NCBI GenBank assembly: GCA_049967655.1
Contig: JBMFSH010000008.1
Location: forward strand, 39,268 to 103,267
Origin: Acidobacteriota bacterium
GTDB lineage: Bacteria > Acidobacteriota > UBA4820 > DSQY01
Direction of reading: 5' to 3'
Length of the DNA stretch: 64,000 bases
Position 1 is the stretch's first letter. Each line of letters starts with the position of its first letter. The notes under the pieces are model-generated. The model had not been told where the DNA came from and did no database searches. It saw only the letters and a program-made list of their open reading frames with translations. Positions 3,238 through 62,220 of this stretch are shown here, in pieces. A program made the position numbers and the translations under genes.

Positions 3238-5169
<1,932 letters not shown>

Positions 5170-5402
5170 GGCGCACCTTTCACTCGGCCTCCCCAGGCCG
5201 CACCGAGAACCCTGGTCTCTCGCAATGCTTCTTCATACAGTAAACTCTTCCGGCTTGCAAGGAAAGCACCCGCCCCCGCGCCTCCACGACTCCTCGCTTC
5301 TGGCCCCCTGCCCTTGGTTCCCGGCCTCTCATTTGACAGCCTTCGACCTCCCTGTGTACCTTACGCAAGGACCGGCGGGACCCGCCGGGCCAAGGAGACG
5401 AC

Positions 5403-56320: not shown

Positions 56321-57919
56321 TCACCCGATCGGGCGGCCCTCCTTGCGCCGCCATAACTCGTACCGCGCGTTTTGGTAAATCGGTTCGAAGCGCCGCGTCA
56401 GGTAACTCCGCCACGCCTCGCCCCCGCCGAAGCCGGCGGGCTGGGCGATCCAGTCGGTCCGGCTGCGATCCAGCGCGGAGATGGCCTCCGAGACCTGCGA
56501 CGGCGTCGTGACGTCGGGGGGAAGGAAGACGTCAAACGGAGCGGGTGAGGGGTGCCCCGTGAGAACGTTCAGCATGCCCATGAAACCCGTCGCGAAGAGC
56601 GGCACCCCCGGGCGCAGCCGGGCCGCCACCGCGTCCACGATCCCCTGCAGATCCGCCGCCTCCGAACGCGGGAGAGGCCCCACCGCCCCCGCCGGCGTCA
56701 TCACCATAGGACCCCGTTCGCTCAGGAGTCCCGGCAGGCGGGCCAGTCCAGCCCCCGCGAAGACGAGGATCACGGCCCCGGCCGCCAGCCCGGCCGCGCG
56801 GCGCTGACGGTCACCGCGGCCGGCCCACCGCTCCAGGCCCCACGCGGCGGTCAGCCCCGCCAGCGGGAGAGCCCACTCCAGGTTCACCAGGGCCAGGCAC
56901 CTGAAGGTGGGAAGGAGGAAGGCACACGCACCGGCCGCCAGGAGATAGAAACGCCAGCCGATCTCGCGCCGGCGTGTCAGGCCCGCGGCGAAAACGACCC
57001 AAGCCGCCGCCGTCTCGCCGGCCACGAGGAGCACCTTGGCATTCCACAGGCCAAAGGCCACGGGCTCCCGCCGGAAGATCCCCGTCCTCCAAAGGGCGGC
57101 CACCTCCCTCGCCATCCGCGCGAAGCCCGCTACGTTGTCGGCGAAACGATGATAGCGGGACAGCGGGAAGAGGGCCCAGTCATAGAGGAGCGTAGCGGCG
57201 GACACGCGGGGCAGGAGCCAGCACGCGAGCGCCGCGAAGAGGGCCCCGGCGCCGGCGGCCGCGGCCGCCGTGAGACGGGCGCGGGATTCCCTGGGCGCGG
57301 CCAGGAGGCACCAGAGCGCCAGGCCCACGAGCAACAGGCCTCCCTGATCCTGAAGGGTCATGGCGCACAGGGCCGCCAGGGCTCCGCCCGTTACGGCCCA
57401 TGCGGCCCGCCCTCGGTCCGCCGCAAGATCGAAGGCCAACAGGGCCCCCAACGCGAAGACGTCCGCCAGCCAGTGGTGGCTGGGCAACAGCCAAGCCGCG
57501 ACGCCGCAGGATACCAGGGGGGCGATGGCGGCAGCCTGAAAGAGAGGGCGGGTGAGCAGGCGCCGGGAGTAAACGAGGAGCAGGGCCGCCAGGGCGGCCG
57601 AATAGAGAACCGCCACCGCACGCCCGGCCGCCACCGTCACCCCGAGCAGGCGGTAGGCGCCGGCCACCATCAGGAGCGGAAGGGGCAGAACGACCTCGAA
57701 GAAGTCCCGGTAGGGCACCTGTCCCGCCAGGATCCGCCAGCCGCCGAGCGCCACCACGCCCTCGTCTCCCAGTTCGAGCCCCCTGAGGGGCGAGGCGAGA
57801 ACCATGGCCACCGACAGGGCGGCCAGGATCACCGGCAGGTAGCGAAGGCAGCCCGAGGCCACCCGACGCACCTTTCCGCCGGCTCCGGCCGTGCCCGCCG
57901 CCCCGCCTCGTGCGACCAT
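56321..57919 (-). CDS. Multi-TM membrane protein, GT-C (ArnT/PMT-like) glycosyltransferase-like
   Basis: N-terminal DEG...GQVPYRDFF loop followed by many TM helices. Start is uncertain. Confidence 0.6.
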   Translation of the reverse strand: MVARGGAAGTAGAGGKVRRVASGCLRYLPVILAALSVAMVLASPLRGLELGDEGVVALGGWRILAGQVPYRDFFEVVLPLPLLMVAGAYRLLGVTVAAGRAVAVLYSAALAALLLVYSRRLLTRPLFQAAAIAPLVSCGVAAWLLPSHHWLADVFALGALLAFDLAADRGRAAWAVTGGALAALCAMTLQDQGGLLLVGLALWCLLAAPRESRARLTAAAAAGAGALFAALACWLLPRVSAATLLYDWALFPLSRYHRFADNVAGFARMAREVAALWRTGIFRREPVAFGLWNAKVLLVAGETAAAWVVFAAGLTRRREIGWRFYLLAAGACAFLLPTFRCLALVNLEWALPLAGLTAAWGLERWAGRGDRQRRAAGLAAGAVILVFAGAGLARLPGLLSERGPMVMTPAGAVGPLPRSEAADLQGIVDAVAARLRPGVPLFATGFMGMLNVLTGHPSPAPFDVFLPPDVTTPSQVSEAISALDRSRTDWIAQPAGFGGGEAWRSYLTRRFEPIYQNARYELWRRKEGRPIG

Positions 57920-58012: not shown

Positions 58013-58040
58013 TTGACTTCGGCTTCAAAAGGTCTATATT
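58013..58040 (+). promoter_or_regulatory. Putative promoter of the KamA operon, with inverted repeat gaagcc-N10-ggcttc flanking the -35
   Basis: TTGACT-16 bp-TATATT in an AT-richer patch. Confidence 0.45.
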
Positions 58041-58290
58041 TGCCACAAGTTCAAAGCAGGCGGGCGGTCCGCGGTGCTTTGGAACCATAGGAGCTGGAGG
58101 GGCCGGGATCGCTTCCCGGCGAACAGGATGGAACAAGAGCAGCCACCAAGTCCCGCCGCCCTCAAGAAGAAGAGGGCATTACAATATGTCGGATCCTTTG
58201 GCCTCGCTCATTTCCAGCGAGGCATTGTCGTTTCTGGAGACCAAGTCGGCGAGGCACCCGGCATGGAGCCGGGGCCGCAGGGAGGCCGCC

Positions 58291-59547
58291 ATGCTGGATA
58301 GTCCAGCACCATCATCACCCCCGTCAGGAAGGTCGTCCTATTTCCCCGAGGCCACCGATGAGCAGTGGAATGACTGGCGGTGGCAATACCGAAACCGCAT
58401 CAAGGACCTCGAGACGCTCCACCGCCTCCTTCCCTACTCCAAGAGCGAGTACCAGCAGCTCAAGCTCCTCTCGCCCAGCCTGCACGTGGGCATCCCTCCT
58501 TACTACCTGAGCCTCATCGATCCGAGCGATCCCGAGGATCCCGTTCGCAAGCAGGCCGTCCCTTCGATCCTGGAGTACACCTACCGGAGCGTGGGCATCG
58601 ACGACCCCCTGGGCGAGGATGCCGACATGCCGGTAGAGGGGCTGGTGCACCGGTATCCCGACCGGTGCCTCTTCATCGCCACCAACATGTGCCCCATGTA
58701 CTGCCGCCACTGCACCCGTCGCCGGGAGTGGGAGGATGGCGAGCTGCCGAAGAACCGCCAGCAGCTCGACGCCATGATCGACTACATCCGGCGCACCCCG
58801 CAGATCCGCGACGTCATCTTCTCGGGGGGCGACCCCCTTTCCCTTCCGCTGCCGGTGCTCGACTACTGCCTCACGGAGCTCCGCAAGATCCCGCACGTGG
58901 AGATCATCCGCATCGGCACGCGATTCCCCGTGGTCCTTCCTCAGCGCATCACGGACGAGCTGGTCGGCGTTCTCGGGAAGCACCTGCCCGTTTGGATGAA
59001 CACCCACTTCAATCATCCCAACGAACTGACCCCCGAGGCCGCCGCCGCGTGCCGCAAGGTCCTCTCCGCGGGCATCCCGGTGAACAACCAGTCCGTGCTC
59101 ATGCGGGGCGTGAACGACAACGCCCAGACCATGCTGCGGCTCTGTCACGGACTCCTGAAAATGGGCGTCCGCCCCTACTATCTCTTCCAGTGCGACCCGA
59201 TCCACGGCGCCGAGCACCTTCGGACCTCCGTCTGGACGGGCGTGGAGATCATCGAGAAGATGCGCGGGTGGACCTCGGGCCTCGCCATCCCCACCTTCGT
59301 AGTGGATACGGAGGGCGGAGGCAAGGTCCCCATCACCTCCAACTACATCATGTACGCCACCGAGGACACCCTCGTGCTCCGCAACTACGAAGGCAAGATC
59401 TTCCCCTACAGGAATCCCGCTCCTGCCACCCGAAGCAAGCCAAGGCGCCCGGCGGCCCAGGCCGCCCAGGGCCGATCCAACCGAGCCACTCGCCCCCACC
59501 TCGCCCAACTCAGGTTCACCCCCGATGCGAATCGGCCTGACGTTTGA
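58291..59547 (+). CDS. KamA-family radical SAM aminomutase (lysine 2,3-aminomutase-like)
   Basis: WNDWRWQ, HRYPDR, CPMYCRHCTRRR, SGGDPL, NQSVL, YYLFQCD, DTEGGGK (PLP Lys). Start chosen for its GGAGG RBS; alternative ATG at 58186. Confidence 0.9.
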   Translation: MLDSPAPSSPPSGRSSYFPEATDEQWNDWRWQYRNRIKDLETLHRLLPYSKSEYQQLKLLSPSLHVGIPPYYLSLIDPSDPEDPVRKQAVPSILEYTYRSVGIDDPLGEDADMPVEGLVHRYPDRCLFIATNMCPMYCRHCTRRREWEDGELPKNRQQLDAMIDYIRRTPQIRDVIFSGGDPLSLPLPVLDYCLTELRKIPHVEIIRIGTRFPVVLPQRITDELVGVLGKHLPVWMNTHFNHPNELTPEAAAACRKVLSAGIPVNNQSVLMRGVNDNAQTMLRLCHGLLKMGVRPYYLFQCDPIHGAEHLRTSVWTGVEIIEKMRGWTSGLAIPTFVVDTEGGGKVPITSNYIMYATEDTLVLRNYEGKIFPYRNPAPATRSKPRRPAAQAAQGRSNRATRPHLAQLRFTPDANRPDV

Positions 59548-60526
59548 CATGAAGCCCACGGGGAGCCCGGTTCCCTCCGCGCTCCCCGATGATCTCTTCG
59601 AGGAGTACGACCCACCTTCAACCGTAGGAGCCATCGAAGCGGCCATCGCGGAGTGCGGCCATGAGGTGGTGCGCCTGGGCGGCGGGCGGGAGTTCCTGGA
59701 GCGGGTGCTCCACGAACCCGTGGACTTCGTCTTCAACATCGCCGAGGGGCGCGGCGCCTTCAGGAGCCGCGAGGGCCAAGTGCCATCGGTGCTGGAGATG
59801 CTTGGCATCCCCTACAGCTTCTCCGACCCGCTCACTCTCGCCATCAGCCTGGACAAGCCGCTCACCAAGCGCCTCGTGGCCGCCGCCGGAGTGGCGGTGG
59901 CGCCCGACTGGGTCGTGGAGAGCGAATCGGATCTCGACCGCCTGCTTCGGAGCGGCCCTCCCTTTCCACTCTTCGCCAAGCCGGCCTTCGAGGGCTCCTC
60001 CAAGGGGATCCGCGGCAGCTCGCGCCTGGAGGGGGCCGGGCAACTGAGGGAGAGGGTCGGCGACATACTGCGCTCCTACGCCCAACCGGTGATGGTGGAA
60101 GGCTTCGTGGCCGGCGACGAGTACACCGTCGGCATCATCGGGAACAACCCGCCCGAGGCCATCGGCGCCATGAGGATACGGCCCAGGAGCGGCGCGGACC
60201 CCGACTTCGTCTATTCCATCGAGGTGAAGCGCGACTGGGAGAACCAAGTCGCCTACGACGTCCCTCCGCCGCTGCCAGCGGACCTGCTGGCGCGGCTCTA
60301 CGCCGACGCGGTCAAGGCTTTCTCCGCGATCGGCTGCCGGGACGTGGCCAGGGTGGACTTCCGGATCCGCGAAGGCGTGCCCGTCTTCCTGGAGATCAAT
60401 CCCCTGCCCGGACTTTCTCCGGCCTACGGCGACCTCCCCATCCTCTCGCGCGGCATGGGCATTGCCTATCCGGCGCTGATGTCGCGCATACTGTCGGCGG
60501 CCTTCGCGCGCTGCGGACTGGCGTGA
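59525..60526 (+). CDS. D-Ala-D-Ala-ligase-like ATP-grasp enzyme 1
   Basis: FNIAEG, LDK, KPAFEGSSKGI, ARVDFR, LEINPLPG; lacks the canonical Ddl HG..GEDG motif. Confidence 0.85.
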   Translation: MRIGLTFDMKPTGSPVPSALPDDLFEEYDPPSTVGAIEAAIAECGHEVVRLGGGREFLERVLHEPVDFVFNIAEGRGAFRSREGQVPSVLEMLGIPYSFSDPLTLAISLDKPLTKRLVAAAGVAVAPDWVVESESDLDRLLRSGPPFPLFAKPAFEGSSKGIRGSSRLEGAGQLRERVGDILRSYAQPVMVEGFVAGDEYTVGIIGNNPPEAIGAMRIRPRSGADPDFVYSIEVKRDWENQVAYDVPPPLPADLLARLYADAVKAFSAIGCRDVARVDFRIREGVPVFLEINPLPGLSPAYGDLPILSRGMGIAYPALMSRILSAAFARCGLA

Positions 60527-60567
60527 AAGGGAAGGCGGGCCCGGCGGACGGCACTCAAGGCGAAGAC

Positions 60568-61584
60568 ATGACGAAAAAGGTAACCCTCATCCACAACACG
60601 AGCGATCCCACCCTGCCCGAAAGCGCCGCCGAGGAGGGGGTCATGGAGACCGTGGAGGCGGTGGAGCAGGTTCTGGGCCGCCAGGGCCAGAGCGTCTCCC
60701 GGCTTCCCCTCACGACACCCCTGTCCGCCGCCGCTGCCGCCTTGGAGCAACTGCCGAAGGGCTCCCTGGTCTTCAACCTCTTCGAAGGCTTTCCCGGCGA
60801 TCCCTCCAGCGAGGTCCAGGTGGGTCTTTTGATTAAGGCCCTGGCGCTGAGGGCCACCGGATGTCCTCCCATGGCCATGCACCTGGGCCTTCACAAGCCT
60901 CTGGCCAAGCGTCTCCTGGCCGCGGAAGGCATTCCCACGGCCGCGGGCCTTCACGTTCGGCGGATCGAGGAGGTGCCGGAGCCCCTCCCCTTCCCCTTTC
61001 CGGTCTTCCTGAAGCCGGCCGCCAACGACGCGAGCCACGGCATCGGGCCATCGAGCGTCGTGCGGGACCGCGTCTCCCTCGTCGAGAGGCTGGACGTCCT
61101 CCTGGACCGGTTCCCACAGGGGGTCCTCGTGGAGAGCTTCCTGGCCGGGCGGGAGCTGAACTGCTCGGTGGTGGAGACGGCGGAGGGCCCCCGCCCGCTG
61201 CCGCCCTCCCTGGTGGACTACTCCGCCCTTCCTCCTGGATACCCGCCGGTCTTGACCTTCGAGGCCAAGTGGGCGCCCGAGAGCCCCGTCTACCAGCAGA
61301 CCCCGACCCTCTGCCCCGCCCCCGTGGAGCCCGCACTCTTCAACCGGGCGCAGCAGCTCGCCCTGCTCTCCTACCGCGCCCTGGGCTGCCGGGGTTATGC
61401 TCGCGTGGACCTGCGCGAGGACGGCGACGGTTCGCTGTGCGTCCTGGAGGTGAATCCCAACCCCGACCTCGCCCCCTCCGCGGGGCTGGCCAAGCAGGCC
61501 CGAGCGGCGGGCTGGGACTACACCCGCCTCGTTTCAACCATCCTCGGCTCTGCCGAGAAGGGGGAGCCATGGACCTTCGAATGA
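60568..61584 (+). CDS. D-Ala-D-Ala-ligase-like ATP-grasp enzyme 2
   Basis: FNLFEG, KPAANDASHGI, GRE, YARVDLR, LEVNPNPD. Confidence 0.85.
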   Translation: MTKKVTLIHNTSDPTLPESAAEEGVMETVEAVEQVLGRQGQSVSRLPLTTPLSAAAAALEQLPKGSLVFNLFEGFPGDPSSEVQVGLLIKALALRATGCPPMAMHLGLHKPLAKRLLAAEGIPTAAGLHVRRIEEVPEPLPFPFPVFLKPAANDASHGIGPSSVVRDRVSLVERLDVLLDRFPQGVLVESFLAGRELNCSVVETAEGPRPLPPSLVDYSALPPGYPPVLTFEAKWAPESPVYQQTPTLCPAPVEPALFNRAQQLALLSYRALGCRGYARVDLREDGDGSLCVLEVNPNPDLAPSAGLAKQARAAGWDYTRLVSTILGSAEKGEPWTFE

Positions 61585-62054
61585 GAGAGCTCAGGCGGGA
61601 GGACCGATCGGAATTGAAGCAGATGCTGGAGCGGGCGGGCGTTTTCCGGACGGAGGAGATCGAGGTGGCCCTCGAGCTCATCGACGTGGCGCTGGCGAAG
61701 CCGGGACAGACCGACTACTCCTTTCTGGTGGCCGAAGGGGAAGACGGCAAGGTGGCGGGGTACGCCTGCTGGGGGGCCACGCCGTGCACGCTCGGGACCT
61801 TCGACCTCTACTGGATCGCCGCCGATCCGACCGTCCACGGAAAGGGGGCGGGGCACGCCCTCCTTCTTCGCGCGGAGGAGGAGATGCGCCGCCGCGGCGG
61901 CAGGCTCTGCGTCATCGAGACCTCCTCCCTGCCCCAGTACGAACCGGCGAGGCGGTTCTACCTGCGCCACGGGTACAAGGTGGCCGCCGAGATCCGGGAT
62001 TTCTACGCGCCGGGCGACCACCGCGTCATCTTCACCCGCGCGCTGGGGGGATGA
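61569..62054 (+). CDS. GNAT family N-acetyltransferase
   Basis: DLYWIA, HGKGAG acetyl-CoA motif, ETSS, FYLRHGY; overlaps the stop of the preceding gene. Confidence 0.88.
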   Translation: MDLRMRELRREDRSELKQMLERAGVFRTEEIEVALELIDVALAKPGQTDYSFLVAEGEDGKVAGYACWGATPCTLGTFDLYWIAADPTVHGKGAGHALLLRAEEEMRRRGGRLCVIETSSLPQYEPARRFYLRHGYKVAAEIRDFYAPGDHRVIFTRALGG

Positions 62055-62220
62055 TATAGAGAGATCATGGATGAGGGATCGTTGAGAGATGGAAAGTGCC
62101 AAGCTCTAAATCCCGTCCTGCGTGGTTCTGTTCAATGTGCATTTCACCATTCGTCTTCTCCCCCAACCTTGCGAAGGCGCGGTTCTGGTATCTATAATCG
62201 TCAATGAATGGAGGTGTGCT

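Follow-up and report, generated by a model that had tools for sequence, protein, structure and literature searches.

What does a cell make with a lysine 2,3-aminomutase-like enzyme, two proteins that databases name D-alanine-D-alanine ligases and an acetyltransferase, all encoded side by side? The question is raised by a 64,000-nucleotide stretch of DNA, hereafter the window, from an Acidobacteriota bacterium (assembly GCA_049967655.1, contig JBMFSH010000008.1, positions 39,268 to 103,267), in which the genes kamA, ligA, ligB and gnat form one unit on the + strand (58291-62054). An earlier note on this DNA described four overlapping or closely spaced genes, which the open reading frames (ORFs) found at this span bear out, and suggested that they make an acetylated beta-amino-acid amide. 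Our best reading is that the cassette encodes a widespread beta-lysine amide pathway that would be assembled from known kinds of enzymes and is mislabelled as D-Ala-D-Ala ligases. More precisely, we lean, with somewhat more conviction than doubt, towards a feedback-regulated cytoplasmic pathway to a small beta-lysine amide that would be cationic and polyamine-like. The suggestion of the earlier note thus stands in its core, for which the conservation of the cassette and the non-Ddl character of its ligases argue, and loses its peptidoglycan option, which is disfavored. The four genes are as follows.

58291-59547, + strand: kamA, a lysine 2,3-aminomutase-like radical S-adenosylmethionine/pyridoxal phosphate (PLP) enzyme of 418 amino acids (aa), without the Zn site
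59525-60526, + strand: ligA, a Ddl-fold ATP-grasp ligase with putative acidic donor and acceptor pockets (E27, D29, E74, R82, Ser/Gly-Asp303)
60568-61584, + strand: ligB, a Ddl-fold ATP-grasp ligase with a remodelled site (E73, and in E. coli DdlB numbering G149>D, S150>A, Y216>W, G276>D and L282>G); fusion to GNAT is frequent in relatives
61569-62054, + strand: gnat, a GNAT N-acetyltransferase of the PDB 2R7H family

At their 5' ends ligA shares 23 nucleotides (nt) with kamA and gnat shares 16 nt with ligB; for ligB, an in-frame GTG at 60523 overlaps the ligA stop codon. The kamA start at 58291 is favored over the first ATG at 58186, and GGAGG plus ATG are kept in 7 aligned family members.

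The conservation of the cassette is far beyond chance. In data limited to one genome per species, LigA relatives turn up in at least 491 stretches. We fetched 80 loci with LigA among the matches listed (8 from Acidobacteriota, 70 from Chloroflexota and 2 others): kamA is present in 79 of them and GNAT in 69, and 10 of the 11 loci without GNAT end at a contig edge. The same genes are seen, arranged in several orders, in 20 loci from Planctomycetota, a phylum in which 23 of 151 genomes have LigA. Among 301 Acidobacteriota genomes, including one unpublished genome (G046), 70 have LigA; a close KamA was found in 63 of these versus 19 of the 231 LigA-negative genomes, counts in which related genomes are not independent and for which the score thresholds (219 bits for LigA, 380 bits for KamA) were chosen after seeing the data. 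The remaining 7 LigA-positive genomes carry a distant KamA-family gene. The components are also fused to each other: among 150 representatives there are 17 LigA-LigB, 3 LigB-LigA and 4 KamA-LigA fusions, and each of the 37 longer GNAT homologues resembles LigB more than LigA, 36 of them with both the Ddl_C and GNAT Pfam domains. The cassette is split in some carriers. A metagenome scan with one fusion protein returned 11 loci, and a search for plasmid copies yielded only distant matches of about 33%. The objection that the earlier note itself had foreseen, namely that the four genes might not be conserved together, therefore does not hold.

Some carriers depart from this layout. In family f35 the order is reversed to GNAT-LigB-LigA (L115-L119, L166 and L167), and the only KamA-family gene of its 7 genomes is of a distant, approximately 480-aa type located elsewhere in the genome. 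In 25 of the 80 loci (within L027-L094) a small MarR-like helix-turn-helix gene lies divergently upstream of kamA and is a candidate regulator in Dehalococcoidia.

The two ligases belong to the Ddl fold and are unusual members of it. In Pfam, both match only the Ddl C-terminal domain, with no match to the Ddl N-terminal model; they score 149 and 116 bits against a Ddl cut-off of 243 bits, and the HG..GEDG motif of Ddl, whose loss the earlier note had recognized in both, is replaced by FNxxEG. Ddl is nevertheless every top structural match of their predicted structures (pLDDT 94.7; TM about 0.75-0.79). Like DdlA/B and VanA/C, LigA and LigB retain the fold and the ATP, metal and Arg catalytic residues (K, K, E, R, D, E/D and N kept in 98-100% of 77 LigA and 72 LigB sequences), so both should be active. 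Unlike the Ddl family, they fall below all cut-offs, have changed pockets and occur in lineages without MurF and Alr. A FastTree phylogeny with one outgroup left the origin of LigA and LigB unresolved.

The pockets suggest what the ligases may join. Substrate positions are given in E. coli DdlB numbering and were read from alignments to Ddl; Glu15, His63, Ser150, Tyr216, Gly276, Ser281 and Leu282 are what we take to be the substrate sites. His63 is replaced by Glu in 77/77 LigA and 72/72 LigB. LigA keeps a Glu15-like residue (E27), Ser/Thr150 and Gly276 and has D29 and R82 in addition; E27, D29, E74 and R82 are present in 100% of the 77 sequences, and 71 of the 77 have an Asp beside the Ser281 position. 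Because the catalytic set is intact, the donor pocket carries extra acids and an Asp occupies the Ser281/Leu282 region, LigA would be suited to a donor with two amino groups and an acceptor that is cationic. In LigB no acid is fixed at the Glu15 position, and the protein is changed at G149 (to D/H), S150 (to A/G), Y216 (to W), G276 (to D in 53 and C in 19 sequences) and L282 (to Gly in 72/72). Its substrate is perhaps different from that of LigA, either N-acylated or larger, which would fit the GNAT fusion. The earlier note had also proposed a heterodimer of the two ligases. On the one hand, the fusions favor it, the complex model scores 0.33 with the best control at 0.01, and at least 83% of contacts are shared between the model runs, with a partner pLDDT of 82. 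On the other hand, the score may echo the solved Ddl homodimer; the mark for a complex is reached by 116/157 solved and 2/215 mismatched pairs, and at 0.60 or less by 18/157 solved pairs and both mismatches. The heterodimer is thus weakly suggested.

Related ligases also occur in other settings. One protein of the same non-canonical clade is a LigB-like ligase fused to a methyltransferase (L096:6566-8569, + strand), a recurring two-gene module, in which KamA is missing, has a LigB-like ligase gene behind a Peptidase_Mx gene (L098, L158-L160), and many tandem proteins among the 150 representatives (P0042-P0059 and others) have two LigA-like domains.

KamA is the component whose reaction can be assigned best. 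It aligns to the C. subterminale lysine 2,3-aminomutase 2A5H (E 6e-135) and in this alignment keeps R134, D293 (FQCD), D330 (VVD) and K337 (R178, D337, D374 and K380 in 453-aa numbering). D293 and D330 are presumably the substrate-amine-binding aspartates of lysine 2,3-aminomutase, and K337 the PLP lysine. These four residues and the CxxxCxxC cluster are invariant in 28/28 aligned homologues. The earlier note was right about the Asp pair and also about the missing Zn-cysteine cluster: C268, C375, C377 and C380 are all missing (N312 stands at the C268 position), and the CxCxxC motif is missing from the last 120 residues in 71/71 homologues, so the Zn site is absent family-wide. KamA passes the subfamily model TIGR00238 (352 bits, cut-off 199) and falls under the EpmB cut-off (238 vs 369 bits), which makes it the clostridial type. 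Of the substrate-specific NCBIfam models none passes its cut-off, and the lysine model scores best (482.6 bits for TIGR03820, cut-off 525), ahead of the glutamate (439) and arginine (372) models. The substrate is probably lysine, since the Asp pair is kept, the lysine model scores best, and this sole KamA-family gene of a 99%-complete source genome stands beside EpmA and a PGKG-bearing elongation factor P (EF-P). Where the earlier note had left beta-lysine and beta-arginine side by side, these points favor beta-lysine and disfavor beta-arginine. According to PMC12856214, EpmA ligates (R)-beta-lysine; the KamA product may therefore be the (R) isomer.

As for related genes, no match to lysine 5,6-aminomutase was found in the source genome, although the control also matched nowhere. 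The only PF02784 match in this genome is a SpeA-like arginine decarboxylase (window 3241-5232, - strand); thus no LysA was found, and lysine may be imported.

The closest solved structure to the cassette GNAT is PDB 2R7H (E 1e-33; profile E 2.5e-49), which bears the name "putative D-alanine N-acetyltransferase". In AblA/AblB (TIGR03820/TIGR03827), a lysine aminomutase and an acetyltransferase make the osmolyte N-epsilon-acetyl-beta-lysine. The earlier note drew this analogy, and it holds at the level of function: in both systems a lysine 2,3-aminomutase would be paired with a GNAT whose substrate is beta-lysine or something derived from it. It does not hold at the level of family, as this GNAT does not match TIGR03827 and only 1/48 homologues does (E 3e-4). 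Other features also set the cassette apart from AblAB: a GNAT of the 2R7H type, two ATP-grasp ligases that are nearly always present and GNAT-fused, a KamA without the Zn tail, an optional deacetylase and an acidic-Pro-Pro (acidic-PP) leader. The deacetylase is part of the only recurring enzyme partner in the two sets of 80 and 60 loci, a GNAT-like plus acetylpolyamine-amidohydrolase (APAH) protein found in 10/80 and 3/60. Its best PDB matches are acetylpolyamine amidohydrolases (3Q9B, 6PHR and 9GKZ; E 5e-75), and its gene lies between kamA and ligA twice and is fused to the cassette GNAT once. A partner of the APAH clade points to a small acetylated amine.

The proposed pathway would comprise the following steps, perhaps in another order. 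KamA would convert L-lysine to beta-lysine, the most strongly inferred step, and in the source organism's family this pool probably also feeds EpmA and EF-P. LigA would phosphorylate the beta-lysine carboxyl with ATP and couple this group to an acceptor that is basic, either lysine, beta-lysine or a diamine. LigB, with GNAT, would form another amide bond, on a substrate that is larger or N-acetylated, and might do so as a LigA-LigB heterodimer. GNAT would cap a free amine, and the cap would be reversible where the GNAT-acetylpolyamine amidohydrolase gene is present. Agmatine or putrescine as the acceptor, an idea suggested by one genome, was rejected on the evidence of 59 genomes.

The region upstream of kamA bears on how such a pathway might be regulated. 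It contains three features.

58013-58040, + strand: sigma70-type promoter, TTGACT-N16-TATATT (two sites found in the scan, 0.4 expected)
58128-58301, + strand: leader ORF of 57 codons, starting MEQEQPPS, that crosses the hairpin and ends 11 nt into kamA
58201-58233, + strand: terminator-like hairpin followed by a weak T-rich tract (-13 to -21 kcal/mol in 13/13 family members)

Both promoter hexamers are kept in 7/7 aligned family members. An ORF crosses the hairpin in 13/13 cassette-bearing family members: in 11 it terminates shortly after the kamA start, in one it shares the frame of KamA, and in one it stops between the hairpin and kamA. The 5' arm of the hairpin, CCTCGC, is invariant in 11/11; the hairpin scan by itself stays at the level of chance, with 3 hits for 2.2 expected, and the fold of the leader region has a z of -2.1 (a single fold, computed as the antiterminator check). 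No riboswitch or other Rfam RNA except rRNA and tRNA was detected in 10 loci. The leader and the terminator-like hairpin appear to control the operon. An acidic-PP motif, its pattern chosen after seeing the data, occurs within 110 codons of the KamA start in 85 of 110 KamAs that lead their cassette, mostly in frame and often twice, compared with 1/17 inner KamAs, 1/33 leading LigAs, 0/19 KamAs of ligase-free genomes, 5/10 unlinked KamA-family genes in ligase-positive genomes, and a background of 162/3000 windows (5.4%). The leader motif differs between genera by synonymous changes. PPG and PPS can be EF-P-dependent pauses (PMC4140641), and AZIN1 is regulated by polyamine-induced pausing at PPW, with eIF5A (PMC8705083). 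As a further part of the proposal, ribosome pausing at the motif, whether in the KamA N-terminus or in the leader ORF, would lower expression, plausibly in response to the product; this feedback is a reasoned guess and the least certain part.

At its 3' side the unit is bounded by a separate promoter-like site.

62169-62198, + strand: promoter-like site of the downstream pal gene

On the other side, a 532-aa membrane-protein-like ORF without a Pfam or NCBIfam match (window 56321-57919, - strand) is divergent from the operon; it was not seen between eamA and kamA in the genomes of genus g6. A contig from an RNA library, 93% alike, spans the kamA-ligA junction; it shows neither transcription nor an operon and does not cover the leader.

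In the source organism's family KamA probably serves two customers, the ligases and EpmA/EF-P. We think so because in genus g6 (4/4 genomes) and genome G004 kamA is kept at the same locus before pal with ligA, ligB and gnat missing, and because a second, EpmA-like match is present in all 14 tested genomes of the order. The source genome itself has EpmA over the cut-off and an EF-P with PGKG (Lys34). As in the EpmB/EpmA/EF-P system (PMC12856214), beta-lysine would be supplied, and the cassette KamA is the only candidate EpmA supplier in this family; unlike in that system, KamA is of the clostridial type, the ligases are ATP-grasp rather than LysRS-like, and most carriers lack EpmA and EF-P Lys34. 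EpmA was found in only 1/24 Dehalococcoidia-type and 4/42 other Acidobacteriota carriers. In a sample of 31 EF-P loci (30 of the 39 genomes with a match, plus the source genome), 27 lack the PGKG lysine and 4 have Lys34. The loop tips (L195-L223) are mostly PGN(W/L)R, K(M/I/V)GRG or KMQQR, which are not among the types described in the portion of PMC12856214 available. One genome (G098, L194) has the cassette, the deacetylase gene and an EF-P with PGKG, and only a LysRS-length match to the EpmA model. Genus g6 and G004 encode a second KamA-family protein of 634 aa (L186:4717-6618, - strand), and two deoxyhypusine-synthase-like genes are located elsewhere in the source genome. The probable second role of KamA, in EF-P lysylation, goes beyond the earlier note, as do the leader/attenuator, the deacetylase partner and the acidic-PP motif.

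Several observations weigh against the pathway as proposed. The pocket assignments come from alignments to Ddl and not from coordinates, and the residue roles are presumed. The terminator tail of the source genome is weak, and similar hairpins are present in 2/4 g6 genomes, all four of which are missing the leader ORF. The acidic-PP motif is not universal, QPP is found in 5/13 family leaders, and most positives are related Dehalococcoidia; given its rarity in inner KamAs and leading LigAs, it may be a trait of the KamA lineage. According to PMC4140641, ribosomes do not pause strongly at most PPX motifs. The deacetylase partner is optional and is missing from the source genome (only a 29% match) and from the 20 Planctomycetota loci. 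Finally, arginine-decarboxylase-family genes do not track the cassette, as 3/4 g6 genomes retain them and several carriers yielded none, and no spermidine synthase was found in the source genome, which leaves a standard polyamine acceptor without support.

The rival that survives best, although we consider it unlikely, is that the ligases attach beta-lysine, later acetylated and deacetylated, to a macromolecule, for example a protein or a lipid, different from EF-P Lys34. Protein modification is known for ATP-grasp enzymes, the acceptor side of LigB is opened by the Gly at L282, a GNAT and HDAC-fold pair would suit a reversible mark, and no transporter recurs beside the cassette in the 80 and 60 loci. 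No target gene recurs in these loci either, the fold is compact with Ddl as every top structural match, and the deacetylase belongs to the small-molecule APAH clade. A free product could itself act on the ribosome, a possibility that we likewise regard as a long shot: a beta-lysyl amide polycation (e.g., beta-lysyl-lysine, mimicking the modified EF-P arm or hypusine) would act where EF-P has no modifiable lysine, with its level set by acetylation, deacetylation and a Pro-Pro stalling sensor, a bacterial counterpart of AZIN1/eIF5A. The likeness to polyamine acetylation/deacetylation with the AZIN1 sensor (PMC8705083) lies in the GNAT, the APAH-clade deacetylase and the Pro-Pro leader motif; the difference is that the amine would be built by amide ligation from beta-lysine and that the sensor is bacterial and putative.

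Quite improbable is that the ligases use the Glu-rich [ED]PP[SG] segment of KamA for docking or as a substrate carrier, in the manner of LysW, and that it is not a translational sensor. The in-frame position in most carriers fits this, as does the fact that the motif follows KamA and not the first gene; however, in the source genus and genus g4 the motif persists, through synonymous changes, in an ORF whose frame differs from that of KamA, and many complete cassettes have none (25/110 leading and 16/17 inner KamAs). There is a slim chance that the aminomutase acts on arginine or ornithine and that the product is a different beta-amino-acid amide. KamA is under the lysine 2,3-aminomutase cut-off and has clade-specific features (RREW after the cluster motif, and Y290F), but D293, D330 and R134 are kept, the arginine and glutamate models score lower, and kamA persists with EpmA-like genes after ligase loss.

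A role in the cell envelope, as a D-Ala-D-Ala-type dipeptide or a peptidoglycan modification, is largely refuted. It has the Ddl fold, the database names and the downstream pal gene in its favor, but pal has its own promoter-like site, His63, Ser150, Tyr216, Gly276 and Leu282 are altered, canonical Ddl, MurF and Alr are encoded elsewhere in the source genome, and among Dehalococcoidia carriers (draft genomes) neither MurF (0/4) nor Alr (0/4) is over its cut-off. The absence of MurF and Alr from tested carriers is why peptidoglycan modification, one option of the earlier note, is disfavored; its view that the ligases are not D-Ala-D-Ala makers agrees with these findings and with the sub-cut-off scores. 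EpmA-independent beta-lysylation of EF-P is very improbable, since 27/31 carrier EF-Ps lack the PGKG lysine and no cassette gene adjoins efp in the 31 loci, even though EpmA is scarce in carriers, the ligases are lost where EpmA is present (g6) and the leader carries Pro-Pro; modification of EF-P by the ligases was rejected on the same lysine count.

We found no description of the cassette in the literature searched, a limited library, and the available parts of bioRxiv 10.1101/2023.09.18.558224 and PMC13602936 contain nothing on it. The label D-alanine-D-alanine ligase wrongly implies cell-wall synthesis in Dehalococcoidia. Knowing the product would give one more beta-lysine metabolite, along with two new ligase specificities and a function for PDB 2R7H. 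Should the leader sense the product, it would offer a simple reporter for finding the molecule and an example of bacterial, Pro-Pro-based metabolite sensing.

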